Assembly (NCBI GenBank): GCA_019056805.1
Contig: DXJG01000002.1
Span: 343,103-375,102 of the forward strand
Length of the DNA stretch: 32,000 bases
DNA from: Candidatus Baldrarchaeota archaeon
GTDB lineage: Archaea; Asgardarchaeota; Baldrarchaeia; Baldrarchaeales; DXJG01
Reading direction: 5' to 3'
The position numbers and the translations under genes were made by a program. This document shows, one piece after another, positions 1,621 to 25,986 of this stretch (position 1 is the first letter of the stretch; each line of letters begins with the position of its first letter). The notes under the pieces were generated by a model. It was not told the origin of the DNA. It searched no databases and saw only the letters and a list, made by a program, of their open reading frames with translations.

Positions 1621-2160
1621 TTGAAAAATTTGAAAAAAGTTAATATCTTTGTAACAGGTCCCCCGAGAAGCGGTAAAAGTACACTTATTGAAAAAATTGT
1701 TACAAATCTTAGGGAGCAAGGCTTTACTATTGGGGGCATTTCCACTCCCGAAGTAAGAGAAAAAGGAAGAAGAATCGGTTTTAAAATAATTGATTTAGCT
1801 AGCGGTAAATGGGGCTGGATGGCACACATAAATATTTTCAGCCGATACAAAGTCTCTAAGTATGGTGTAGATATAAAAACCGTGGAAGACATTGGGGCAA
1901 ATGCTATACTCTCAGCTATTGAAAACGCTGACGTAATAGTAATAGATGAGATCGGTAAGATGGAACTTTTCTCAAGAAAATTTCAAGAAGCTGTTAAGGC
2001 AGCCCTCGATAGTGTTAAACCAGTTATAGGAACAATCGGGTTAAAGTTATACCATCCTTTTGCAAACGAAGTTAAAAAAAGAAAAGATGTAACAATAATA
2101 TTCCTTACAAGAGAAAAATGGGAAGAAGTTTATAAGCAAGTTAAAATGATGCTACTCTAA
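1621..2160 (+). CDS. Nucleoside triphosphatase, THEP1/NTPase_1 family
   Basis: Walker A GPPRSGKS, GGISTPEVREKGRRIGF, KVSKYGV, Walker B VIVIDEIGKMEL. TTG start with GGAGG at 1609-1613. Confidence 0.92.
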   Translation: MKNLKKVNIFVTGPPRSGKSTLIEKIVTNLREQGFTIGGISTPEVREKGRRIGFKIIDLASGKWGWMAHINIFSRYKVSKYGVDIKTVEDIGANAILSAIENADVIVIDEIGKMELFSRKFQEAVKAALDSVKPVIGTIGLKLYHPFANEVKKRKDVTIIFLTREKWEEVYKQVKMMLL

Positions 2161-5100
2161 TTCCTCATCTTCTCTAGTTTCAGTCGAGTCCTTAGTCTCC
2201 CCGGTTTTTACAATTTGTGCTCCACACATCGGGCAATATCTTGCCCCCGGTGGTAATCTAACACCACAGTAAGGACAATAGTTTATAACAACTGGATATC
2301 TTGGATAATATTCTGGTAACGGGGCAAATTCCTTCTTTTTCTTTCTTCTATAAACCAGATAAGCAACTATTAAGACTACAAGAAGAAGAGTAGATGTTGA
2401 AATAAAGATTGGAAGAATTGGTATTGTTATGATTCCTGCACTGACATACAAGAGTGTATATTGATACCCGATTTGTCCATCCTTGTCTCGAAGAATTAGA
2501 AAGAGTACTAAAACACCACTAAGCGAAACATAACCTAATGGAGTCTTTATAGTACCATTTTCTGGAATCTTTACTACACCTTGCCAACCATTTTCTGTCA
2601 GATTTCCTTTGAATGCCAAAAGCGGAAGACCGGAAATAACATATATATCGTAGTCAACTAACAGAGCAAATGCCTCTAATTCTTCGTTCAAATCCTCCAG
2701 ATCACTTCCATAAATCTTATATGATAAAGTATCACCTAAACTGACAGTTAATGCTTTTGTTGTTTCATTTATCTCTTCTAACGTCTGTCCTTCAACTATA
2801 CTGTCCATAGAAACCTCCGGCTCTATGTCAACTACAAGAAATATTCCCGTAGCATTTGTCATATCTAATATGGTGTTGTTTTGCGAATCTTTTACAACCA
2901 CATAATACACATACAGGTCTGAAAAAGTATCTAAACTTGGTTTAAATATTGCGACCCATACATTTCCACTCTTAATCATAGGTATGCTTTTGAAAGTTAA
3001 AGGTTGACGAGACATACCAGAAAACTGGAGATAAGGAGAAAGATATAGCGTAACATCAAGGTTGCTATCATTGCTAGGAATGTAAGCTGTAATCTTTATG
3101 TAATCATCTAAGCGACATATCATATCAATACCAGCAACATACTTTACCCAAGAGGGATATTCTATATCGGATGGATGTTCTATAACAACAGTATTTGAAA
3201 CTCTGGTAATTGTAGGGAAACTTGACGCTACTCTTACAAAACTTCTCTCAACAATTTTCGAACCAGCAATAACATCTATTGTATATACTCCCTCTTCTTC
3301 AAGAACGAAAGATGCCTTAAAAATAGTTTTACTAACATTACTTAAAGTTACATTAAATACAGTGCCATTAGGAATCGTTATCTTAACAGTCACATTCTCC
3401 CTTTCTAATATAGATGCATTTAGAACATATAGAGCTAAATTTAGCGTTGAATTCGTAGTATAGGCGTAATCATCAAGAAGTAACATGACATCCTTTTTCT
3501 TTTCTAAAAGCCAGTTGAAAACATTTTCTTCCAACTGAATATGAGAGGGGTTTTCTTGGAGAAGATCATCATAAAACATTCTTTCACTTCCAAAAACGAC
3601 GATTCTCCCACCACCAGTTACATCTTCATCAGCCACAGCTATGACCACATTATTTTCTAGGTAAGCTATATCGGTAACTCCAATTTTTTCTTCGGTTTTT
3701 AAAGCAACGCCCGTAACCCAGCTTATATTTTCTACGTTACTTGTGATGGGATGTTCTGCAAGATTATCTCGCGTTATATTTAAGATTTCTTTTAGAAAGT
3801 TAAGTATCACAAGGTCAGTTTGCTTAGCTATTGTTTTGTTTGTAAACGATATACCATAGGGCGATAATATGTCATTTAATGGTTCTGCAGCAAAAGCCTG
3901 ATAGAAACTTCCTAAAACAAGTAGTGATCCTCCATTTTCTACGAATTCCCAAATTGCATATTTTTCATCCGATGTAAACATTAGTTCTACATCAGGTAAA
4001 ATCAAAATATCGTAGTCTTCAAGCTTCTCTACAGTCAGAATCCCTTCATAAACATCTAAATCAATTGACATGCTGGCTAGATACCTAGCAAAAAGATAAT
4101 AATTGTGCCAAGGACTGTCTGTAAAATCGAAATTATGATACCAGTCGAATAATGCCTTAGCTTTGGGTATATCTACCTCCACTTCTAGCTCTATATTTGC
4201 TAAAACCTCTGAATCAACGCTTGAATGGTTAATGAAGTTGATTTGCCCAATATATCTGCCCGGGATTATAGCCAGAGGTATTTCCAATTCTATTTCTAAC
4301 GTAGCAACGCCAAAAATATTAGTAAAAGCAGTTTTATTCACACTTATGTTCAGATTGGTGATATTTCCAGAAATTTCAATATCTATATCACATTCAGCAC
4401 CACTCAGCAAAATGACGGTAGTAACTAAGTCATCACCAGGAAATCTGATTATTTGAGGTGGTGTCGGGATACTACTAGGCAACACCTTTACAACAGGTAG
4501 AAACGAGTCCCTTAAGTTTTGTTCAAGAAAACGATATGCTTCATAGACATCGACAATTCCCGCACCTTGGACATTGTCATCCAAACCAAGATTTTTTGCG
4601 GTCTCCATTAAAGCAAGTCGAATGGCATGGGGATTGCTCCTTCTAAGAGTTGGGAATGCTTGAAGAAGAAGAGCCGCTGCGCCAGCAACAGCAGGGGTAG
4701 ACATAGAAGTTCCGCTCAGAGAAATATAAGCATTGTCTATAATTGTACCTAATTTTTGCCCTGTTCCTTCTAAATACGAGTCTGGAGCTAACGGCGCGAC
4801 TACATCAACTCCCGGTGCCAGAACATCTGGATCTGGGCTCCAAGCTAATGTCGGTCCCCTACTACTGAATGATGCCACATTTCCTTCCCAGTCGCATGCA
4901 CCCACTGTGATAACACCGTAAGCAGCACCAGGAGAACTTATCGATGAATAATATGGTCCAGCGTTTCCAGCAGCAGCAACCACGACAATCCCTTCTTCAA
5001 CAGCTTTTTCAGCAGCTATGCTTATGATATCGTTTGGATCGCCGAGACTTGCACCGAGAGACATACTAATTATATCAACATCCATGGCAACTGCCCATTC

Positions 5101-5898
5101 AATCGCTTTTAAAATCGCTGCTGTTGTTCCCTGACCAAACATGTTAAGACATTTTATGTTGACAATTTGCGCTCCAGGAGCTACACCACTATACATTCCA
5201 TTTGAGGCTGCACCTGTTCCTGCTGCTATTCCGGCCACGTGTGTTCCATGACCATTAAAATCGGTAGAGTTCTCATCAAAATCAAAACCATATTTTTCTA
5301 GTACGAAAGATTTTTTCCAAAGAATTTTTCCTTTTAAATCTGGATGTGCTTCACTAACTCCTGTGTCGAGTATAGCGATCTTAATACCGCTTCCATTAAA
5401 GTTAGGCCATAACTTGTCAGCACTTATGAATTTTGGAACAGTTTCATTAGGTAAATCGTAACTTTTCATGAGGTTGAAGTGAGTTTCTATATCAGGTATG
5501 GCTTGAAATTTTTCGTTGAGATAAATAGTTTCTATAATTTGAAGAGATGCTAACTTTTTCACTTCACTAATTTGCACATAGTAAAGTGCAGCTGGAATTA
5601 TATTAAACACATCAACTTCTTTTAGGCTTTTTATGTTAATGTTGCTAAAATATTCTTGTCTCATACTTAAATGGGCATAATCTTTGAATAATATTATAAC
5701 TTGTATTTCCTTTTCAATATTAGAACTTTCTTCTAAAATCTTAAGAAGTTTAGGAGAAATTTTAGAATTCTCATTTTCATAGGAAATTGGAACTTTTGAG
5801 GAATAATGGTATGCAAAAAACGGAGTGATAAGCGTGGAAGTCACCAGAAAAAGCAATAACAAGCTAAGCATACATCTTAGGTGTTTCCTTATTTTCAT
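2152..5898 (-). CDS. Membrane-anchored S8 subtilase: signal peptide, propeptide, catalytic domain, beta-rich domain, GldG/IFT52-like domain, C-terminal TM helix and cytoplasmic zinc ribbon
   Basis: Triad IAILDTG (D near 5365), NGHGTHVAG (H near 5248), SGTSMSTP (S near 4705); oxyanion AAGNAG; TM IPILPIFISTSTLLLVVLIVAYLVY followed by RRKKKK; CPYC..CPMC. ORF track starts at GTG 5910, but ATG 5898 has GGTGA 5 nt upstream and is the likelier start. Confidence 0.92.
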   Translation of the reverse strand: MKIRKHLRCMLSLLLLFLVTSTLITPFFAYHYSSKVPISYENENSKISPKLLKILEESSNIEKEIQVIILFKDYAHLSMRQEYFSNINIKSLKEVDVFNIIPAALYYVQISEVKKLASLQIIETIYLNEKFQAIPDIETHFNLMKSYDLPNETVPKFISADKLWPNFNGSGIKIAILDTGVSEAHPDLKGKILWKKSFVLEKYGFDFDENSTDFNGHGTHVAGIAAGTGAASNGMYSGVAPGAQIVNIKCLNMFGQGTTAAILKAIEWAVAMDVDIISMSLGASLGDPNDIISIAAEKAVEEGIVVVAAAGNAGPYYSSISSPGAAYGVITVGACDWEGNVASFSSRGPTLAWSPDPDVLAPGVDVVAPLAPDSYLEGTGQKLGTIIDNAYISLSGTSMSTPAVAGAAALLLQAFPTLRRSNPHAIRLALMETAKNLGLDDNVQGAGIVDVYEAYRFLEQNLRDSFLPVVKVLPSSIPTPPQIIRFPGDDLVTTVILLSGAECDIDIEISGNITNLNISVNKTAFTNIFGVATLEIELEIPLAIIPGRYIGQINFINHSSVDSEVLANIELEVEVDIPKAKALFDWYHNFDFTDSPWHNYYLFARYLASMSIDLDVYEGILTVEKLEDYDILILPDVELMFTSDEKYAIWEFVENGGSLLVLGSFYQAFAAEPLNDILSPYGISFTNKTIAKQTDLVILNFLKEILNITRDNLAEHPITSNVENISWVTGVALKTEEKIGVTDIAYLENNVVIAVADEDVTGGGRIVVFGSERMFYDDLLQENPSHIQLEENVFNWLLEKKKDVMLLLDDYAYTTNSTLNLALYVLNASILERENVTVKITIPNGTVFNVTLSNVSKTIFKASFVLEEEGVYTIDVIAGSKIVERSFVRVASSFPTITRVSNTVVIEHPSDIEYPSWVKYVAGIDMICRLDDYIKITAYIPSNDSNLDVTLYLSPYLQFSGMSRQPLTFKSIPMIKSGNVWVAIFKPSLDTFSDLYVYYVVVKDSQNNTILDMTNATGIFLVVDIEPEVSMDSIVEGQTLEEINETTKALTVSLGDTLSYKIYGSDLEDLNEELEAFALLVDYDIYVISGLPLLAFKGNLTENGWQGVVKIPENGTIKTPLGYVSLSGVLVLFLILRDKDGQIGYQYTLLYVSAGIITIPILPIFISTSTLLLVVLIVAYLVYRRKKKKEFAPLPEYYPRYPVVINYCPYCGVRLPPGARYCPMCGAQIVKTGETKDSTETREDEELE

Positions 5899-6225
5899 TA
5901 ACTTCACCACTTTGTATCCGTAGATATCAAATAGATCTTATTTATAGAAACACTTGAAATCAACGTAATACGCATTAAAATAATTTATGCTTGTCGAAAT
6001 GGTTAGCCACAATAATTTAATAATTTTTTGAAGCAAGAATATTGTCGAGAATAGTTAGGATAATGACGCTTTTCAATTATCCAAAAATCCGTCTTCTTCT
6101 AAACATTTCTTACAAAACAAAGAGCATTAAAGAACCATAACATTTCACAAATTAAATCATATGATACAGATTTCGATTATTTTAGTGTTAGAAGCGAGTT
6201 AAAAATTAAGTGGAAATTAATAAAA

Positions 6226-16034: not shown

Positions 16035-16301
16035 ATGATATCTAGTAACATTCTGTTTATAATAGGATATTTTCTCATCTTTCTCGGAATCATAATTATT
16101 TTTGTTACAATGTTCATGTTCCTCTTTAAATCAATTAAAGGTAAAACCGAGACAAAAGCCGGCGGGATAATATTTATTGGCCCTTTTCCCGTGATCTTTG
16201 GAACAGATATTGATATAGCGAAGTGGTTGGTAGTCATTGCACTAATAATTACGCTAATACTTCTTACTATAACTTTAATCCCCTTTATTACAGGAGGATG
16301 A
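16035..16301 (+). CDS. DUF131 family membrane protein
   Basis: TM - charged linker - GGIIFIGPFPVIFGTD - TM. Confidence 0.82.
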   Translation: MISSNILFIIGYFLIFLGIIIIFVTMFMFLFKSIKGKTETKAGGIIFIGPFPVIFGTDIDIAKWLVVIALIITLILLTITLIPFITGG

Positions 16302-16732
16302 GTATTTTGTCTATACTTTGTGAACTTTGCGGAAAGAGGCCAGCCAAATATGTTTGTCAAGAATGTGGAAGGAGAGTTTGTCAACGTTGTTTTAATGTTT
16401 ATTATGAACTCTGTAAAGATTGTTTGAAACCTGTTTTGGAAGAAATGGAGCAATACCATGTAAAAGAAGTTTTTGATATAAACTGGATGCTTAAATTTAT
16501 GTTAATAGGATTTACTATGATATTCCTTGGCATTTTCTTTGTGATTCTAGCTTCTCTAGCAGCTATACCCGAGACAAGCGGTGTTTTCTTTTTCTTTATA
16601 GGTCCTTTTCCAATAGTTTTCGGATATGGGCCTTATGCTCCCTATCTAGCTATTTCAAGCTTTTTCCTATTTATATTTCTTCTATTCTTCATTTACTGGT
16701 GGTATAAGAGAAAAAATACCGAAAAAATCTAA
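16298..16732 (+). CDS. Cys-rich zinc finger fused to a second DUF131-like membrane domain
   Basis: CELC..CQEC..VCQRC..CKDC followed by a TM and FIGPFPIVFG. ATG 16298 overlaps the upstream TGA (ATGA); the ORF track start at 16223 is probably too early. Confidence 0.72.
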   Translation: MSILSILCELCGKRPAKYVCQECGRRVCQRCFNVYYELCKDCLKPVLEEMEQYHVKEVFDINWMLKFMLIGFTMIFLGIFFVILASLAAIPETSGVFFFFIGPFPIVFGYGPYAPYLAISSFFLFIFLLFFIYWWYKRKNTEKI

Positions 16733-16853
16733 ATCTGCATGAATTTTCTTCTCTATTAGCATTATTTGATTTTATCATAAAAAATTATTTTTATATTGCT
16801 GTTGTCGGTTAACTTATAAGGTAAATATGTGAAGTTAGTGGATGTGAAAATTA

Positions 16854-19800
16854 ATGCTTGAAACGTTTAGAGAAATTATATTTCTTTCTAATGAGTTAAT
16901 TCAACAATTACCTGATCCTCGGGAGATTCGTGATAAATTTGAGGAATTTAATGACTGGGTTAATAAAATAAATGAGATAGAAAGAGAGTTTGCTTCTACT
17001 TCTAGATTTAATTTCAAAAAGAAAAGAGAGCTTAAGGAACGTCTCGAAAAAGAGATTGAAAAAGCTAAAAAAATGGCTAATGAACTTTTAGAAGCTAGTG
17101 AAAGACTACTTTTATCGCAATCAAGTATTGTAAGAGAGTTTGCTTCTAAACATTCTAACATTTGTGACAGGACGTTACTAGTAATTGTCCAAAAATTACC
17201 GGAACAAACATCTCTTGGCGACATTACAGTAAAAACAACACATGTTAAAAATATTCTTTCAACTCTTCGAAAAGCTGTTGCACAAATCAAAAACGACGTC
17301 TTAAAATGGGTAAATAACTTAGAAGCTGAAATAACCGAATCGGTTTTTATTATTCAACAAATATCAGAAAAACTAGGAGTACCGATCTCCGTAGAGAAAG
17401 ATAGTTTTATTGAAGAAATAAAAGAAACAAAAATTTTTCTTGAGCAGTTTTGGAAAATTGACGTATCTACAGTAGACAGTTTAATAAGTAAAGTTAAGAG
17501 AAGCTACGAATCATTAAGAAACGATATGAATACAAGTCTTTCAACCCTGATAACTTCTTTTAAAAATCAAATTTTACAATTAAGAGAAGATATACGACTA
17601 GTTGAAGATATCGTGGTCCCACCTTTTCCAATCATTCACACGAATCTTTCCGAAACAACCATGGGAAGTATTTCTATCAATTTATTGAGAACTCTCGCTA
17701 AGGACGTGGAAACTGTAAAACTTTTTGAAGATGATGTTAAAAGGAGACTTCTCAACAAAATAATTGTTTTAATGCGTAGAAATAAATCAAAAATGGAAGT
17801 ATTTAAGAAATACGTAGAAATAGATTCCTCAAAATTATCTCTTACATTAAAAGAGGCTCCGACGATAGACGAACCTTTAAATTCGTTACTAATACATCTT
17901 AAAGATCTCAAGGAGGAGGAAGAATATCTTAATAAAATGGAAAAGGCGGCAATCAATGGGTTAAAAAGTGATTTAAGAAGCAAACTAATGGAACTTTCTT
18001 CTAAAACGGAGGTAATTGTTGAAGAAGGGGTAAAACTTTCTCCAGAAATCACCAGAAAAATAAATGTTCTTTTATCTCAAATTGAAAATATTAAAGACGT
18101 GGATAGTGCCTTAAGTCTTGAAACAGAATATGTGAGGTTATTGGAAGGAATCAAGGATTCTATTAAAAGAGAATTTTTAAGTGAAAGAGGTAGAATCTTA
18201 GAAGTTGTGAGTGAGTTTTTAAGAGATGTAGAAGCTCCTGTGTTAAAGGGTCAAACTATAGAAGAACTTTTGCAAAATCTTCAAGAATTAAAAAGATGGA
18301 AAACAAAAGTAAAAAATCTACTAAAGGAAGAAGTTGTCAAGGCTATCGAAGAACTTGAGAGGGGGAATACTCTTTTAAAGGATACTTCTTGGGAAAATCC
18401 TGAGCTTTTTAAAATCCTTACTCAGATGAGAAATGAAATTAGAGCAGCAAATAAAATCGGAGAAATAGTAGAGATATTAAATAAGATTAATGACTTGAAA
18501 ACTGATGAGGAACAGAGACTTAAAGCAGCTCTTGAAACTATTAAAAAAGAATATATGGAAGTTGTAAAGGTTATAGAAGATCTTGTTGTTGACGTTTCTC
18601 CTTCAATACGTGCACCAATTCACGTAGATGTAAAAAACAAAACATACATTGAACTTACCGAGATTTTACCAGAACTGGGAGAAAAAATAAAACAGAGAGA
18701 TAAACTTGTAAAAGAAACACTTGAAAACTTTCTTTTAAAAATCAAAAATGAAGTTGAACGTATTCCATCACCGTATCGTGAGATTTTCGACCAAGTAATC
18801 AAAGAAATAGATAATAGTATTATCAATTTGAGAAAGGTAAATACTGTCTATGAGGTAAAGGAAGCCTTCAATTTAGCTATAAAAGAAATTAATGGTATGA
18901 TAAAAGAAAAATTCGCAGCATTAAAATCAAACTTAATACTGAAAACCAGGATGGCTTTCATAAAAACGAGAAATCCACCTGATGTAAGTGATGCGGTAGA
19001 AAAACTCAATGGAATAATTATAGAGCAATGGGAAATCTCTAGGGCAATATACGAAGTAAATAAAATATTTCAAGAAGAAATTCTAGGGAAATTACGAGAA
19101 TTTATTGAAAACGAAGCAAGAGATTACATTAACCTCTTAAACAAATTAAAGATGTACAATATTGAAGTAGAAGAATTTATAATAAAACTGGAAGAGGTAT
19201 TAGCAAAATTTTCATCAAAGAAGGAACTTGATATACAGGAAATTGGAGAATTAGGAAAAACGGTTAATGATGTAATAACTAGTTCAGCACTGAGACAAAC
19301 CTTCGCCAAATGGCTTAATTTAACCGTCGAAGCCTTAGAGAAAACTATAAACTATGTGTCTAAGTGGGTCCAAGTTGAAGAAGACTTCTACGAAGTTATA
19401 CCTACCCTTAAAAAACAATCAGAACTGCTCGATTCTCTAGAAATCGAAACTATTACAAAAATGATAGAACACACACATAAACTATGGGAAATAGCTAGAA
19501 GTTACCTTGAAGAAATCGAAAAACGTCGCGACATGATTTTTGAAGAAGAATTAAAGAAAATTCCATATCACGATTCAATAATGAAAATTTGGGATAAAAA
19601 TCGTAAAGAATTTGACAAAACCATTTTTCCCCTATCCAAATTATTTGAACTTAAAGAAGAAATATCAAAAGAGCAAACACCAAAAATATTAAAATTAATA
19701 GAAGAAAAAGAGAAACTCGAACAAGAATGGTTAGAAAAAGAAAAACAAATCTCTATCTGGCATAAATCAATAAAAATATTTTTAACGGGCATTAGTCCGA

Positions 19801-19925
19801 TGGACAACGAAGAGATTAAGGAAAGAAAACTGAAAGATGTCAAAGAAAAGATAAAAAGAATCTATAAAAGGAAAGATGTTCAAACATATCTAATTCTTGC
19901 AGCTCAAACATTATTAGGTGATTGA
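16854..19925 (+). CDS. 1023-aa all-alpha-helical/coiled-coil protein of unknown function
   Basis: Long open frame, E/K/L/I-rich amphipathic helices broken by Pro-containing loops; no Walker motif, TM segment or signal peptide seen. Confidence 0.87.
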   Translation: MLETFREIIFLSNELIQQLPDPREIRDKFEEFNDWVNKINEIEREFASTSRFNFKKKRELKERLEKEIEKAKKMANELLEASERLLLSQSSIVREFASKHSNICDRTLLVIVQKLPEQTSLGDITVKTTHVKNILSTLRKAVAQIKNDVLKWVNNLEAEITESVFIIQQISEKLGVPISVEKDSFIEEIKETKIFLEQFWKIDVSTVDSLISKVKRSYESLRNDMNTSLSTLITSFKNQILQLREDIRLVEDIVVPPFPIIHTNLSETTMGSISINLLRTLAKDVETVKLFEDDVKRRLLNKIIVLMRRNKSKMEVFKKYVEIDSSKLSLTLKEAPTIDEPLNSLLIHLKDLKEEEEYLNKMEKAAINGLKSDLRSKLMELSSKTEVIVEEGVKLSPEITRKINVLLSQIENIKDVDSALSLETEYVRLLEGIKDSIKREFLSERGRILEVVSEFLRDVEAPVLKGQTIEELLQNLQELKRWKTKVKNLLKEEVVKAIEELERGNTLLKDTSWENPELFKILTQMRNEIRAANKIGEIVEILNKINDLKTDEEQRLKAALETIKKEYMEVVKVIEDLVVDVSPSIRAPIHVDVKNKTYIELTEILPELGEKIKQRDKLVKETLENFLLKIKNEVERIPSPYREIFDQVIKEIDNSIINLRKVNTVYEVKEAFNLAIKEINGMIKEKFAALKSNLILKTRMAFIKTRNPPDVSDAVEKLNGIIIEQWEISRAIYEVNKIFQEEILGKLREFIENEARDYINLLNKLKMYNIEVEEFIIKLEEVLAKFSSKKELDIQEIGELGKTVNDVITSSALRQTFAKWLNLTVEALEKTINYVSKWVQVEEDFYEVIPTLKKQSELLDSLEIETITKMIEHTHKLWEIARSYLEEIEKRRDMIFEEELKKIPYHDSIMKIWDKNRKEFDKTIFPLSKLFELKEEISKEQTPKILKLIEEKEKLEQEWLEKEKQISIWHKSIKIFLTGISPMDNEEIKERKLKDVKEKIKRIYKRKDVQTYLILAAQTLLGD

Positions 19926-19927
19926 AT

Positions 19928-21301
19928 TTGGAAAGAGAAAGTGAAACTCAAACTTACACATCAAATGTATTTTTAATAGGCTTAGGGGAATGCGGAGGAA
20001 ATTTAGTCGGAGAATACATCAATAAAGAAAGAGAAGAAGGAAAACTGGAAAGAGTCACAGGATATCTAATTTTAAACACAAATCGTTATGACCTTGTAAA
20101 AACGAAAGAAAAATACAAAGTACCTCCAGAAAACATGTTAATGTTCGGAGATACTCCAATGGGTGTTGGCGGACGATTTATGGAAGCATACAACCTTATT
20201 GAAATATGGTGGGATGCAATAGCGGAGCAAATAAGAAACCTTGGTGGCGATGTTGCTAGTACCTTCATTATTTTAACATCAACGGGCGGTGGCACTGGTT
20301 GTGGCGCAACCCCGGCCTTAATTCGAAAAATTAGAGAAACTTTCGGTAGAAGTGGCCGTGTGTACATATATGTAATGGGAGTACTCCCATTTGAGGATCA
20401 AACAAGTGAAGCTCTTAACACTATATGGCTTCTTCACAGGCTTCTTCAAGAACCTGAAAAGGGAGAATCCGCCGATCTTGCCATACTTTTGTCTAATAGA
20501 ACTATGCTAAGAAGACGATTACAACATGAAAGATCAATGATAATGGATATTCTTGGTAGTCGTCTTGGAGTAGATATCACAGATGTAACACAATTAAATT
20601 CGATTGTTTTAGGTTCTGAACTTCCATTTAGCGCAAAAGTACTGGAACAAACTTTTGTAGATATTGTTAATCCATTGATCATACAAACACTTGTTAAATT
20701 GTTACAGCTTTCCACGTTTATGCCTGGAAAGAATATTTTTCCTGTCACAGATATGGCCGACATAGCTAATAAACTGGATACTATTTCTATTCCAGCTATT
20801 TTCACCGAAATACCTTACCAAACAACTATGGATGAACAAGGCAACATAGATATGGAGGGACTTGCGATGTTTCTCCAAGAGGTAGTTCATGTGGCTATTA
20901 AGTATTACAGTCTTGTAGATATTCAAGAACATCCTCAAGCATCAAGCGTATTATATCTCCTAAGCGGGCCTCGACATATCGTTGATGTACATTTGGATAG
21001 ACCAATAAAGACAGCATTAAATGAGTATATAGCGGAAGGTGCAGCAGTTACTCCAACATTTATTCAATATGATTCATGGGAAGTACCAATGGATCTTCTA
21101 ATACTGTTAGGACTTCCCAAGCTAGAGGAAATCCGAGATCTTGTAAGCGAAGCCGAAAAACTGATAAATCTTCATAGTGGCAGCAAAATTAAGGAGAGAT
21201 GGTTCTTAAAAAGCAAAGGCGTTTCGAAGGAGACGTTAGTTGAAGCTTTGAATGAGATAAAAGATTTATTTGACATTGGAGGAACTGCGGGTGAAGAGTA
21301 A
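19928..21301 (+). CDS. Tubulin/FtsZ-superfamily GTPase, divergent CetZ-like
   Basis: T1 GLGECGGN, T2 LNTNRYDL, T3 GVGG, signature TGGGTGCGATP (20285-20305), T5 VLPF, T6 ALNT, T7 VTDMADIANKL. GGTGA at 19917-19921 favours TTG 19928 over TTG 19922. Confidence 0.9.
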   Translation: MERESETQTYTSNVFLIGLGECGGNLVGEYINKEREEGKLERVTGYLILNTNRYDLVKTKEKYKVPPENMLMFGDTPMGVGGRFMEAYNLIEIWWDAIAEQIRNLGGDVASTFIILTSTGGGTGCGATPALIRKIRETFGRSGRVYIYVMGVLPFEDQTSEALNTIWLLHRLLQEPEKGESADLAILLSNRTMLRRRLQHERSMIMDILGSRLGVDITDVTQLNSIVLGSELPFSAKVLEQTFVDIVNPLIIQTLVKLLQLSTFMPGKNIFPVTDMADIANKLDTISIPAIFTEIPYQTTMDEQGNIDMEGLAMFLQEVVHVAIKYYSLVDIQEHPQASSVLYLLSGPRHIVDVHLDRPIKTALNEYIAEGAAVTPTFIQYDSWEVPMDLLILLGLPKLEEIRDLVSEAEKLINLHSGSKIKERWFLKSKGVSKETLVEALNEIKDLFDIGGTAGEE

Positions 21302-22187
21302 CAACGAGGAAGCTTCTGTAAACGATCTAAAAAATGATATTCAAAAATTAAGGGAAGAACTAAAAATAATAATAGAACTTCAAAAAATCTTCTTACAAAT
21401 ATTAAAACAAATAATAGCAAACTACCATGCAAATTTAGATATAAATTTGACTGAAAATTTAAAATCTTTCCTTGAATTGAATAAAAATGGCGACAAACGT
21501 CTTAAATCACTATTTCAAGAGGTTCAAAACTTCCTGAACGAAATTACTATCTTACAACACTTAGAATACGAACAGATACCATTAGAAAAAGAGGTTGATA
21601 AATGGAGAATAATATCATCCACAGAAAGGCTAATTGAAAAATTCTCTCCCTCTCATGACACTTTAATTCCAAATCTACTTCTCGAAACAATTAAAATTAT
21701 ACATCAATGCGAAATACCTGAAAAATGGAGAGAAAAAATAGTTAAAAAATTATCATTGGAAATTAGAAGTCTAATTCAAGAAATGTTTACAAAAGACCCA
21801 TATATGGGGCTTCTTAAAAAAATTAAAGATGGACAAATTAAACTTAGTGAAAAAGAACTCAAATCTGTTGAGAAAATTGTTGAAGAGAGAATTAAAACAC
21901 TTATTAACTTACTAGAAAATGCTAATAAAAGTTGGAAAGATAGCATTCTGTCTGCGCAATTTTCTCTAGAGGCTTTTAATTGGGGGACGGCAAAAACCGA
22001 GAAAAGATTCTTACAATTATTTTATCAAAAAGCTAAGAAGCTTATAGAAAGCGTTGGCGAGGAATCAAAGTTTGAAAACAAAATATTAAATTCTGAGGTA
22101 GCTATATTAATTTGTGAACTCGCCGATCAAATTATAAAGATACCAAAAACTCGAATGAAAATAGAGGAGATGAAAAGAAAAATATAA
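21291..22187 (+). CDS. Alpha-helical protein of unknown function with an N-terminal coiled coil
   Basis: GTG 21291 with GGAGG at 21278-21282, overlapping the GTPase stop by 11 nt; the ORF track uses TTG 21270. Confidence 0.8.
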   Translation: MKSNNEEASVNDLKNDIQKLREELKIIIELQKIFLQILKQIIANYHANLDINLTENLKSFLELNKNGDKRLKSLFQEVQNFLNEITILQHLEYEQIPLEKEVDKWRIISSTERLIEKFSPSHDTLIPNLLLETIKIIHQCEIPEKWREKIVKKLSLEIRSLIQEMFTKDPYMGLLKKIKDGQIKLSEKELKSVEKIVEERIKTLINLLENANKSWKDSILSAQFSLEAFNWGTAKTEKRFLQLFYQKAKKLIESVGEESKFENKILNSEVAILICELADQIIKIPKTRMKIEEMKRKI

Positions 22188-22610: not shown

Positions 22611-24266
22611 TCAAGTCCATTTTTCATTAATAGAGATTTTTTTGAAGAGCGGACTTGGTTTCTTAATTAAATGTCCCGAAGGAATTAGTAGTTCTTTTGC
22701 TGTAGTCCAATTCTCCTTATCGTGTACTGAACCGTCAAGGTTTAACATTTCCCAGATTTTCTCAGAGCTAAAGGGTATAAATGGTTCCATTAATATGGCT
22801 AAGCAACGAGTTAATTGACAGCATAAGTTTAGTGTGGTTTCAGCAATTTCTTTTTCGCTTTTCATTTTGTGCCACGGGGCTTTATCGTTGAGGTACTTGT
22901 TTCCTTTCCTTGCTAAATTCATAGCTTCACTAAGTGCATCCTTAAATTTAAACTTCTCTAAAAGTTCAGCAACGGTATCTGGAGTTCTCTGAATACTTGC
23001 TATAAGTTCTTTGTCAAGCTCGTCAAGTTCATGTCTTTCAGGAACTTTTCCATCAAACTGTTTATAGATAAATACAAGGGTTCTATGCACAAAGTTACCT
23101 AAGATATCAACTAATTCGTTATTGATTCTCGCTTGGAAATCGTCCCAAGTAAAGCTTGAATCTTTTGTCTCCGGTCTTATAGATATCAGATAATATCTCC
23201 AATAATCAACTGGAAATTTTTCTAACGCTTCATCAGCCCAGACTCCCCATCTTCTACTCTTAGAAAACGGTTTTCCACAAAAGAGTAAGAATTCTGTGGA
23301 AGCAACGTTCCAAGGCAAAATATATTTTTCTTCACTTGCCATGAGTAGTGCTGGCAAAATTAATACGTGGAACGGTATGTTATCTTTGGCTATAAAGTAC
23401 ACACTCTTTGTCTGAGGATCAAACCAATATTTTTTCCACTTATCGGGTTTTCCTACATTTTTTGCCCATTCTATTGTTGCAGATATATACCCTAGAACAG
23501 CTTCCATCCAAACATAAATCGTCTTTTTCTCAGCACCTGGAAATGGTGCTGATATCCCCCACTCATTGTCCCTAGTAAGTGATCTAGGTTTTAACCCCTC
23601 ATTTAATAGGTTTAAGCTAAAGTTTCTAGCATTTTCTGGTAATTGCTTATTACTCTCTACATATTTCTTTAATTCCTCTTCAAATTTCGATAAGTCAAAA
23701 AACCAATGAGTAGTCTTTTTAATCTCTGGAGTAGAACCACATATCGCGCAACGCGGAGATTCTAATTCTATAGGATCTAAAAGTCTCCCGCAATTTTCAC
23801 ATTGGTCCCCTCTAGCATTTTCATAATTGCAATAAGGACAAACACCTTCAACAAACCTATCCGGTAAAAATCTTTGACATTTAGGGCAGTAGAGCATTTC
23901 AATTTCTTTTGAAAATATGTAGCCATTTTCATAGACTTTCCTATAAAAGTTTTGAACAAATTCCTTGTGAACAGGACTTTCTGTTCGTGTATAATTGTCA
24001 AAAGATATTCCCCATTCATCAAAAATCTTCTTAACTTTCTGATGCATCTCATCAGTGAGTTCACGTGGCGACATCCCTCTTTTTATCGCTTCAACTTCAA
24101 TTGGAGTACCATGTTCGTCAGAACCAGAGACAAACACTACTTCATCTCCTCTAAGCCTAAGATATCTTGCAAAAACGTCCGCAGATAATACTGAACCTAT
24201 CATGGTTCCTAAATGAGGTACATAGTTTATATATGGCCAAGCTGAACATACAAGCCATCTACGCAT
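22611..24266 (-). CDS. metG: Methionyl-tRNA synthetase, copy A (SAWPY/HLGT/AKDN type)
   Basis: SAWPYINYVPHLGT, SDEHG, four CxxC knuckle motifs, YVWMEA, AKDNIPFH, FSKS, GNFVHR, KAPW. ATG 24266 has GGAGGT 7 nt upstream; the ORF track uses GTG 24284. Confidence 0.96.
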   Translation of the reverse strand: MRRWLVCSAWPYINYVPHLGTMIGSVLSADVFARYLRLRGDEVVFVSGSDEHGTPIEVEAIKRGMSPRELTDEMHQKVKKIFDEWGISFDNYTRTESPVHKEFVQNFYRKVYENGYIFSKEIEMLYCPKCQRFLPDRFVEGVCPYCNYENARGDQCENCGRLLDPIELESPRCAICGSTPEIKKTTHWFFDLSKFEEELKKYVESNKQLPENARNFSLNLLNEGLKPRSLTRDNEWGISAPFPGAEKKTIYVWMEAVLGYISATIEWAKNVGKPDKWKKYWFDPQTKSVYFIAKDNIPFHVLILPALLMASEEKYILPWNVASTEFLLFCGKPFSKSRRWGVWADEALEKFPVDYWRYYLISIRPETKDSSFTWDDFQARINNELVDILGNFVHRTLVFIYKQFDGKVPERHELDELDKELIASIQRTPDTVAELLEKFKFKDALSEAMNLARKGNKYLNDKAPWHKMKSEKEIAETTLNLCCQLTRCLAILMEPFIPFSSEKIWEMLNLDGSVHDKENWTTAKELLIPSGHLIKKPSPLFKKISINEKWT

Positions 24267-24312
24267 CTTTCTTACCTCCGACACGTAAAAATCTATTTAT
24301 CAGCGTGTTATT

Positions 24313-25986
24313 TTACTTGTTTTCAGTTTTCATTGATTCTAATATTTCTTCTATTTTTTCATCCGCAATTTTCTGAAATATTGGTTCAGGTTTTTTAATT
24401 AAATGACCTGGTGGAATTTCAACTTCAGTTAAATAACTCCAGCTAAATTTTTCTATATTTAGATATTCCAAAACTTTTTTGGCTGAGGAGGGTATAAAGG
24501 GAACTAGCAATATAGCTATAGTTTTTACAAGTTGAGCAGCAACAAACAATGTTGTCTTAGCATCATTCACATTGCTTTTAACCGTTTTCCAAGGTTCTTT
24601 GAGATTTAAATATTTATTTCCTTCTCTAGCCAAATTTATAATGTTTTCAAGGGCTAATTTTAACCTATATGTTCCCATAAGTTTTTCTATCTTTTCTATA
24701 TCTCTCTTGATAAGTTCTATGATTCTTTTGTCTTCTTCTTTATATTCAGATGGTTCTGGAACTTTACCTTGAAAATATCTGTAAATAAAGGTTAAAACTC
24801 GATGTATAAAATTTCCAATGATCCCAACGAGATCGTTATTAATTCTATCTTTAAATTCTTTCCAACTCCAGTCGGTATCATCTAAAGACAGAGGAGAAGC
24901 AAGTATTAAATAAAATCTTGCGTAATCTGCAGGGAAATGTTTAAGGAAGTCTTCAACCGCAATATACCATCCTCTACTCTTTGAAAACTTCTTTTTTTCT
25001 AATGTGAGAAATCCTCGAGTTGGTATAGCTGAAGGAAGGTTAAAGCCTAGGTTTGTACCCTTAAGCATTGCAGGCCAAAACAGATAGTGGTGGTAAATGA
25101 TATCCTTTCCGATATGGTGAATAATTTTTGTTTCTGGATTCTTCCACCATCTTTCCCAATTATCGCCGTGATCTTTACACCATTTCATGGTGGAGGCAAT
25201 ATATCCAATTGGAGCATCAAACCACACATAAACCTTTTTTCCCTTAGAGTCTTCATAGGGAAGTTCAAATCCCCAGTAGTCTTTTTCTCTTGTGATGTCC
25301 CAGTCTTTTAGTCCCTCCTCTATCCATCTAAGTACGTAATTCACAACTTGGGATTGCATTTCCTTATTGTTTTTTAACCAGTTTTTAAGGAAATCTGAAA
25401 ACGCTGAAAGTTTAAAAATGAAATGAGAACTTTCTTTAGGAATAGGAGTAGAGCCGCACAATGCGCATTTAGGGTCTAAAATTTCTCCAAATTCAAACGT
25501 TGTACCACACTTCTCACAATAATCGCTATACTGATCTTGGGCTCCACATCTCGGACATGTACCCTTTACATAACGGTCTGGTAGATAACGTTGACAGTTG
25601 GGACAATAATGCAGTTTCACATAGTCTTTGTATATGTAGCCATTTTCTCTCAGCGATTTCAAAAATAAATGAGTTAACTCTTCATTTTCGGGGCTATGTG
25701 TTCTGTAAAAAACGTCGAATTCGATGTCTAGTGATTTGAAAATTTTCTTGTCAAGTTCATGGTAATTCTTTACGAATTCTTCTACGTTTTTTCCAGCTTT
25801 TTCGGCTGCGAGCTGAATTGGGGTACCATGTTCATCTGTAGCACAAATATAGAGAGTTTCAACACCTTTTAAACGGTAAAAACGAGCAAGAACATCAGCA
25901 GGCAAATAGGTACTTTTCATATGACCTAGATGAGGTATTCCATTAGCATAGGGTAAAGCTGCTGTTATTAACACCCTTTTGAACAT
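24313..25986 (-). CDS. metG: Methionyl-tRNA synthetase, copy B (ALPY/HLGH/GKDI type)
   Basis: AALPYANGIPHLGH, TDEHG, four CxxC, YVWFDAPIGY, GKDIIYHH, KFSKS, GNFIHR, KEPW; GGAGG SD. Confidence 0.96.
   Translation of the reverse strand: MFKRVLITAALPYANGIPHLGHMKSTYLPADVLARFYRLKGVETLYICATDEHGTPIQLAAEKAGKNVEEFVKNYHELDKKIFKSLDIEFDVFYRTHSPENEELTHLFLKSLRENGYIYKDYVKLHYCPNCQRYLPDRYVKGTCPRCGAQDQYSDYCEKCGTTFEFGEILDPKCALCGSTPIPKESSHFIFKLSAFSDFLKNWLKNNKEMQSQVVNYVLRWIEEGLKDWDITREKDYWGFELPYEDSKGKKVYVWFDAPIGYIASTMKWCKDHGDNWERWWKNPETKIIHHIGKDIIYHHYLFWPAMLKGTNLGFNLPSAIPTRGFLTLEKKKFSKSRGWYIAVEDFLKHFPADYARFYLILASPLSLDDTDWSWKEFKDRINNDLVGIIGNFIHRVLTFIYRYFQGKVPEPSEYKEEDKRIIELIKRDIEKIEKLMGTYRLKLALENIINLAREGNKYLNLKEPWKTVKSNVNDAKTTLFVAAQLVKTIAILLVPFIPSSAKKVLEYLNIEKFSWSYLTEVEIPPGHLIKKPEPIFQKIADEKIEEILESMKTENK

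Follow-up and report, generated by a model that had tools for sequence, protein, structure and literature searches.

Does a compact cluster of three genes on contig DXJG01000002.1 of a Candidatus Baldrarchaeota archaeon encode a filament system of its own, built around a GTPase of the tubulin superfamily and peculiar to the Asgard archaea? The stretch analysed here, hereafter the window, is the whole 32,000-nucleotide (nt) segment (G+C content ∼33%; the assembly comprises 1.92 Mb in 18 contigs). An earlier note, made from the letters of the window, had picked out positions 16854-22187 as an uncharacterised cytoskeletal system composed of a large helical protein, a tubulin-like GTPase and a smaller helical partner, here termed A, B and C, respectively. 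Judged from sequence comparisons, the operon probably encodes a chromosomal, Asgard-specific filament system that has been kept as a unit in at least seven Asgard lineages, a reading to which we assign a probability of about 0.55. Its polymerisation, the contacts between A, B and C, and its cellular role are features that we infer.

Open reading frame (ORF) calls fill positions 16854-22187 with three co-oriented ORFs that abut or overlap. The genes and their putative control elements, including Shine-Dalgarno (SD)-like motifs, are as follows:
16733..16853, + strand: AT-rich intergenic region upstream of A, presumed to hold the promoter; no + strand ORF of at least 80 amino acids (aa) starts in it
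16854..19925, + strand: gene A, ATG start, 1023 aa, predicted all-alpha rod-like partner from an Asgard-only family
19918..19922, + strand: SD-like GGTGA, putatively serving B, directly before the stop codon of A
19928..21301, + strand: gene B, TTG start, 457 aa, tubulin-superfamily GTPase of the Asg.Tub clade; its frame opens at 19922
21278..21283, + strand: SD-like GGAGGA, putatively serving C, within the 3′ end of B
21291..22187, + strand: gene C, GTG start, 298 aa, predicted all-alpha partner from an Asgard-only family; its frame opens at 21270

The starts of B and C are chosen because they match public gene calls: a 98%-identical B protein has 457 aa, and the C of the window itself is on record with 298 aa. 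Read from the sequence, the A/B junction consists of GGTGA, the TGA stop codon of A (19923-19925) and then the TTG of B at 19928. At the B/C junction, GGAGGA is followed by the GTG of C at 21291 and by the TAA stop codon of B at 21299-21301, an overlap of 11 nt. The coordinates thus agree with the earlier note in all three of its claims about this layout, namely that the co-oriented genes lack real spacers, that the stop codon of A falls between the SD motif and the start of B, and that the SD motif and GTG of C lie inside the 3′ end of B. Both junctions are consistent with translational coupling of A, B and C.

The three genes are a conserved unit, as a synteny search with iterated hidden Markov models over 88 loci has established for what had been proposed from a single locus. 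Gene A lies directly upstream of B in 83 loci and C directly downstream in 86. The five misses of A fall at contig edges or at N gaps inside A, and the two misses of C at contig ends (contig edges at loci L026, L082, L077, L049 and L088; N gaps inside A at L032 and L036). The trio is present in at least seven lineages: Baldr, Thor, Hermod, Hod, Heimdall LC_3, Sif/Borr and Asgardarchaeum. Seven inspected loci from different lineages share the order of large protein, GTPase and smaller protein on one strand with gaps of −35 to +73 nt, with the exception of the B-C gap at the Asgardarchaeia locus, which measures 172 nt and holds a called 42-aa ORF. BLASTP identifies the flanking proteins as true homologues of the window's A and C across Asgard classes. 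Order, strand and near-zero spacing are kept where B is 40-45%, and A and C are 16-24%, identical to the window copies, and identity to these copies drops in parallel for A, B and C, as expected under co-inheritance. Clustering of all ORFs at the loci found no other family common across lineages; genes for a WD40 propeller, a CoA-binding protein and an FMN-dehydrogenase recur in 43-57 loci, those inspected being Thor-type; the loci examined from Heimdall, Hod, Asgardarchaeia and Baldr lack all three. The A-B-C arrangement is not due to chance, given its recurrence at practically all related loci.

B matches the Pfam Tubulin domain (PF00091) with 58.1 bits, against a cut-off of 33, over residues 16-196, and scores 60.7 bits in a scan of the genome (residue numbers in B are counted from 19922). 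Its motifs T1 (GxGECG) and T4 (GGGTGCG) are invariant in alignments of 13 and 24 members, the latter spanning 38-88% identity. Further invariant blocks in the 24 members are S6/T6 SNR.ML, VNPL, TD[LM]AD and a C-terminal HSG..LK..WF.RSKG, which includes H418, W427, F428 and K432, and a C-terminal helix is present after the last strand. Between two Baldr lineages, B is far better conserved (65% identity) than its partners A (32%) and C (40%). Two of the motifs map to the window as follows:
20285..20305, + strand: T4 signature GGGTGCG, nucleotide-binding, residues 122-128 of B, invariant in both alignments
20750..20761, + strand: candidate T7 motif D-M-A-D of B, with D277 and D280 invariant

The T7 assignment can be made in two registers. 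By inspection, TD[LM]AD[IY]A.KL resembles NxDFADV (DFAD) of FtsZ and D.SEI.NTL (D-x-S-E) of CetZ, a register that puts ∼39 additional residues, within the variable stretch 200-240, between T6 and T7. An hhalign comparison places the T7 of CetZ on residues 242-252 of B, where position 247 is always D or E. Either register therefore leaves B with a conserved acidic residue at T7, supplied by the invariant D277 and D280 in the first and by position 247 in the second. A further candidate, in which N250-P-L supplied the T7 asparagine and left the Baldr protein without a catalytic acid, was dropped after the invariant TD[LM]AD had been seen.

Within the superfamily, B is closest to CetZ. Its best match in a profile search of Protein Data Bank (PDB) sequences is CetZ1 (4b46; E 2.4e-13), whereas the tubulins of that database reach E ∼1e-6 over residues 74-203 only. 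Using hhalign, B aligns with a 20-sequence CetZ profile at 99.6% probability over 352 columns covering both domains, and with a four-sequence tubulin profile over 149 N-terminal columns only; a Pfam search found no Tubulin_C domain in it. The proposed distinction from division FtsZ is upheld: B scores 23.3 bits on the FtsZ equivalog TIGR00065, which has a cut-off of 295.2, and two strong FtsZ genes lie elsewhere in the genome (166-169 bits on PF00091; both group with FtsZ-like rows of the tree).

A quick maximum-likelihood tree was built from 116 sequences, with SH-aLRT as its sole measure of support. Clades were labelled through searches of their members, the canonical CetZ clade through P0078, which matches 4b46 at E 3e-113. 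B and its Asgard homologues, including a Heimdall LC_3 sequence, form a clade with 100% support, and together with six orphan relatives make up an 18-row set behind a branch with 95% support. The canonical CetZ clade of 47 rows excludes the B family, and true tubulins, FtsZ and a second non-canonical group are separate from this family as well. The B gene tree sorts the sequences by Asgard lineage label with no mixing. A search of 1.84 billion cluster representatives at 50% identity returned two at 670 and 646 bits, the next at 160 and the rest at 82 or below, so that the B family stands alone at this level.

The GTPase family itself has been named before. An Asgard-only, CetZ-like group of four sequences from Heimdall and Thor (OLS26264.1, KXH77455.1, OLS30664.1 and PWI48967.1) was designated Asg.Tub; its placement was unstable between CetZ and tubulin, and the genes next to it were described as unknown and as containing coiled-coil regions (Santana-Molina et al., 2023, PMC9871819). 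More recently the same group, as the 'CetZ-related Asgard archaeal clade', served as an outgroup in work on AtubAB (bioRxiv 10.64898/2026.02.15.705738). OLS26264.1, part of the C-terminal alignment of Asg.Tub, is our homologue P0048, which is 41% identical to B, and B therefore belongs to Asg.Tub. Two Thor proteins in that alignment carry the same motifs as B. The 2023 study shares with ours the family and the coiled-coil neighbours; it included no Baldrarchaeia among its four sequences, did not define the trio or the two conserved partner families, and assigned no function (PMC9871819). Full-text literature searches found no paper on the function of Asg.Tub or of the A-B-C trio, Asg.Tub being mentioned in passing, and they returned no characterised CetZ- or FtsZ-like locus that matches the operon. 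The claim of an uncharacterised system thus stands in part: the Asg.Tub GTPase was already named, and the conserved trio and the partner families A and C are not described in the literature searched.

Neither partner belongs to a Pfam or NCBIfam family, and profile searches of PDB sequences with A or C yielded nothing beyond designed helical bundles (E 0.004 or weaker). Both lack a transmembrane segment, as previously noted, with no 19-residue window exceeding a mean Kyte-Doolittle value of 1.6. The AlphaFold2 (AF2) model of A (mean pLDDT 79.7, pTM 0.37) contains ∼33 helices, many of 40-50 residues, and zero strands; A models as an elongated rod of helical bundles. Consecutive 140-aa windows of A align with one another in hhalign at 87-89% probability over 107-115 columns, and a stretch of ∼135 positions in the A profile matches twice in 1140-aa paralogues from Hod. 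Since both results point there, we consider A to be built of tandem repeats of ∼130-140 aa. The repeat signal is moderate, and differences in repeat number would explain the length range of 870-1400 aa in the family.

Structural searches with A gave a best E of 0.026 and a TM-score of ∼0.1 in Foldseek against the PDB, generic three-helix bundles at Z of 9.8 or lower, under the helical noise mark, in the wide VIA-align search, repeat-rod surface proteins (e.g. Ebh GA modules, spectrin) at TM-scores of 0.2 or lower in AFDB, and only its own Thor cluster (0.87) in a protein atlas look-up. None of these rises above the helical background, and we make no claim that the fold of A is new. The conserved part of A is found at one end:
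19515..19922, + strand: C-terminal module of A, residues ∼888-1023, the sole part that BLASTP aligns with the Heimdall/Hod versions

Against Heimdall LC_3 and Hodarchaeales proteins, BLASTP covers residues 888-1021 only (E 3e-8 to 4e-10); against Thor and Asgardarchaeia it reaches E 1e-25 to 1e-29 and E 1e-68, respectively. Residues W969, H970, Y1012 and L1013 are invariant in 34 sequences.

C is smaller and more confidently modelled by AF2 (mean pLDDT 86.5). Counting residues from 21270, positions 13-100 are predicted, with moderate confidence, to form long helices, and the remainder a compact domain:
21597..22184, + strand: predicted compact helical C-terminal domain of C, residues 110-305, AF2 pLDDT ∼97, the conserved part

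BLASTP of C against other lineages covers residues 105-305, with E ∼1e-20 for Thor and 1e-3 for Heimdall/Hod, and D110, P134, P177, G239, E244, R246 and K302 are invariant. Searches with the fold of C gave a best E of 0.26 in Foldseek against the PDB, a best Z of 8.1 in the wide VIA-align search, over the N-terminal helices only, TM-scores of 0.32 or lower in the ESM Atlas and nothing usable in the protein atlas look-up. Among AFDB clusters its own family was clear, and its C-terminal domain weakly matched the C-terminal ∼200 residues of three uncharacterised proteins, one of them annotated as PKD-domain-containing. A profile of C run against 5.8 billion proteins recovered Asgard members only. 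A non-canonical CetZ-like protein of Haloquadratum has been linked to a locus rich in proteins with IG-like domains and WD40 proteins (PMC10936438, 2024); that C and such PKD- or IG-like-associated proteins might have an adaptor domain in common is a speculative idea.

The module is patchily distributed. B homologues at 40-48% identity come exclusively from Asgard bins, namely Thor, Hermod, Hod, Heimdall LC_3, Sif/Borr, Asgardarchaeum and Baldr, and the named relatives closest to B (88-89% identity) carry the label Baldrarchaeota. Of the 400 Asgard genomes sampled, 124, from several major lineages, contain B: it is present in 75 of the 89 genomes that the last three family-level groups have in total, with f31 accounting for nearly all the matches listed, and in none of the genomes of the two largest family-level groups (0/135 and 0/31). 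Most genomes that carry the module have a single copy. The 90%-identity cluster of P0005, a protein 88% identical to B, includes locus L013 (JAGGSW010000041.1) and bears the labels Odinarchaeota, Thermofilum sp., Bathyarchaeota and Baldrarchaeota; the entries under the first three labels probably come from Baldrarchaeia contigs that were named or binned wrongly.

Two variants of the module are new. Eight genomes of a Hodarchaeales-type genus-level group (g19) hold a second B match, and two of these second loci, which were fetched, encode an A′ of 1140 aa and a B′ of 441-444 aa, with a convergent 740-aa gene in place of C:
L093:7420-12180, − strand: A′-B′ pair, g19 paralogue without a C-like gene downstream
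L094:3560-8331, + strand: A′-B′ pair, g19 paralogue without a C-like gene downstream

In the quick tree, B′ nests within the Heimdall/Hod clade. The nearest outgroup of the B family comprises P0064 and P0225, with 27-28% identity to members of the family. These GTPases lack A, and the gene after each overlaps it and encodes a protein of 262-268 aa whose N-terminal helix is hydrophobic and transmembrane-like, putatively a membrane anchor:
L091:7001-9149: outgroup GTPase and overlapping 262-268-aa protein
L095:8001-10180: outgroup GTPase and overlapping 262-268-aa protein

An hhalign comparison of C with this downstream protein gave 35% probability over 68 C-terminal columns, a weak likeness that may serve as a lead and is not evidence of homology. 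GTPase homologues without the flanking genes, which the earlier note had named as grounds for rejecting its proposal, thus exist in part, as A′-B′ without C and as the sister clade without A; at the main loci, A and C are kept. The two variants argue for a modular rather than an obligate three-part system.

The neighbours of the operon in the window are housekeeping genes for arginyl-tRNA synthetase, two methionyl-tRNA synthetases, a HAD hydrolase and an eRF1-family (release factor/Pelota-type) protein, and the contig extends to at least ∼375 kb, a chromosomal setting. Searches of the neighbouring genes and for repeats found neither a small TubR-like DNA-binding gene nor a repeat array or centromere-like repeats around the operon, and no division genes lie near the trio in any lineage inspected, so that the earlier reading of this neighbourhood holds on both points. 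The methionyl-tRNA synthetase genes, directly downstream, are two full-length tandem copies of 557 aa each (22611-25986, − strand); the Baldr-type locus L010 has one. Directly upstream, a gene for a 169-aa protein (16223-16732, + strand) gives B-box and HIT zinc-finger matches just below threshold, and is not among the neighbour families common to many loci. Further away, a 1252-aa S8 subtilase (2152-5910, − strand) carries an ABC_transp_aux/IFT52-GIFT-like domain and a C-terminal zinc ribbon. The WD40 gene that recurs just upstream of A in 43 loci encodes a divergent beta-propeller protein of ∼650 aa with IFT122/EML-like Pfam matches; it is absent from the window, as from the examined loci of the other lineages mentioned above. 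Three examples, all Thor-type, were inspected:
L004:3067-4986, − strand: WD40 gene
L006:3098-5047, − strand: WD40 gene
L007:3080-5050, − strand: WD40 gene

A GTP-dependent filament former with two dedicated partners fits these data best, given the motifs and CetZ homology of B, the gene junctions, the co-inheritance of the trio and its housekeeping context. The three proteins would be made from one transcript through coupled translation. B would bind GTP and most likely polymerise head-to-tail into protofilaments, as its relatives do, its GTPase being completed by the acidic T7 residues of the next subunit. A and C would act on the B polymer. A most likely docks through its conserved C-terminal module, leaving the rod to bundle, space or tether filaments, and C is most likely an adaptor or regulator that works through its compact helical domain. 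Because the genome has two FtsZ genes at other sites, the module is unlikely to be division machinery; cell shape, protrusions or internal organisation are the more likely roles.

Several points weigh against this interpretation. Filament assembly and the A-B, B-C and A-C contacts are steps that we infer, and a prediction of the B+C complex scored 0.01 against a mark of 0.32, which counts neither for nor against binding. The two placements of T7 in B, from hhalign and from the motifs, disagree. About two thirds of the 400 sampled Asgard genomes lack the module, which is therefore dispensable. The Hod-type paralogue works without an adjacent C, and the GTPase of the sister clade occurs without A. 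Finally, A, B and C all lack a membrane anchor or amphipathic tail that would explain a link to the envelope.

Two alternatives carry about equal weight, and both are unlikely. The operon could be an accessory system for division or chromosome organisation, with B as a third FtsZ-like ring or scaffold and A as an EzrA-like modulator of FtsZ assembly. The modelled rod of helical bundles in A, with its AFDB matches to Ebh GA modules and spectrin, would suit such a role, and a distant relative of B is encoded directly downstream of SMC-ScpA genes. The second member of the sister clade does not share that neighbourhood, however, and A lacks the transmembrane anchor of EzrA. The FtsZ equivalog score of B (23 against 295 bits), the two FtsZ genes already present, the lack of division genes near the trio in the lineages inspected and the patchy distribution (124/400 genomes) likewise speak against it.

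Just as doubtful is a B that acts as a non-polymerising GTPase switch or assembly factor, for which A and C would be effectors or clients. Switch-type roles have been reported for some very divergent members of the superfamily, B is itself very divergent, with its variable insertion of ∼35-40 aa between T6 and T7 and its family-specific conserved C-terminal extension, and its polymerisation is a prediction. The elements for longitudinal contact and hydrolysis are nevertheless invariant in B, that is T1, T4 and, under either register, the acids of T7, and both of its domains align with the filament-forming CetZ.

It is highly improbable that an integrated plasmid or virus contributed the operon as a TubZ-like (type III) cassette for DNA partition. 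TubZ systems are likewise three-part and their TubY is helical, but here the searches around the operon found neither a TubR-like gene nor centromere-like repeats, its neighbours are housekeeping genes on a contig of at least ∼375 kb, the B tree groups by Asgard lineage label and the module is single-copy in most genomes. Least probable of all is that the three genes are mere neighbours with unrelated functions, a very unlikely explanation which could draw on the contacts between their products being predicted ones, and which is at odds with an order, strand and spacing retained at such low identities while the surrounding genes all differ.

Compared with known systems, the predicted Asgard filament system is closest to CetZ of the Euryarchaeota, where Haloferax volcanii CetZ1 and CetZ2 (PDB 4b46 and 4b45) act in cell shape. 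In addition to being the best sequence and profile match, CetZ shares with B the C-terminal helix and, with the T7 of B read in either candidate register, an acidic residue in that motif. B differs in its T1 motif (GECG, against GQAGG in CetZ), in the ∼39 extra residues between T6 and T7 that the motif register implies, in the conserved extension HSG..LK..WF.RSKG and in its separate, well-supported branch. The genome context of CetZ has also been reported as unrelated to that of these CetZ-like groups (PMC9871819).

BtubA/B with BtubC, AtubA/B and OdinTubulin are likewise GTPases whose operons are small and tightly coupled and in some cases include a stabilising helical partner (BtubC), and the T1 cysteine of B recalls the GQCG of tubulin. 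Unlike these true prokaryotic tubulins, B aligns with tubulin over 149 N-terminal columns only and lacks Tubulin_C; unlike BtubA/B and AtubA/B, the operon has a single GTPase gene, with no A/B pair of GTPases, and its partners are not TPR proteins. FtsZ with EzrA, and TubZ with TubR and TubY, are similarly superfamily polymers with dedicated helical modulators, and the model of A suggests a rod of helical bundles comparable to the spectrin-like ones that make up EzrA. A and C have no sequence match or significant fold match to EzrA, TubY or TubR. Moreover, A lacks the transmembrane anchor of EzrA, and neither the DNA-binding adaptor nor the centromere of TubZ systems was found around the operon.

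Asgard archaea are the closest archaeal relatives of eukaryotes. To our knowledge, only Lokiactin, two FtsZs, OdinTubulin and AtubAB have been studied among them so far. The trio is probably an unexplored filament system, with two dedicated partner families that resemble nothing known. As three proteins that can be cloned, it offers a concrete means of studying how polymers of the tubulin type gained dedicated associated proteins, and the variants A′-B′ and B plus a transmembrane partner are natural experiments on the role of each partner. More tentatively, A and C may be the founders of two new classes of tubulin-superfamily filament-binding proteins, and A-B-C a third Asgard-specific cytoskeletal system beside Lokiactin and the mini-microtubules of AtubAB, in which the A rod would set spacing or tether filaments and the transmembrane partner of the sister clade would represent a membrane-tethered variant. 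If this possibility, which we regard as less likely than the existence of the filament system itself, were true, the operon would offer a prokaryotic analogue of scaffolding by microtubule-associated proteins (MAPs) in the lineage leading to eukaryotes.

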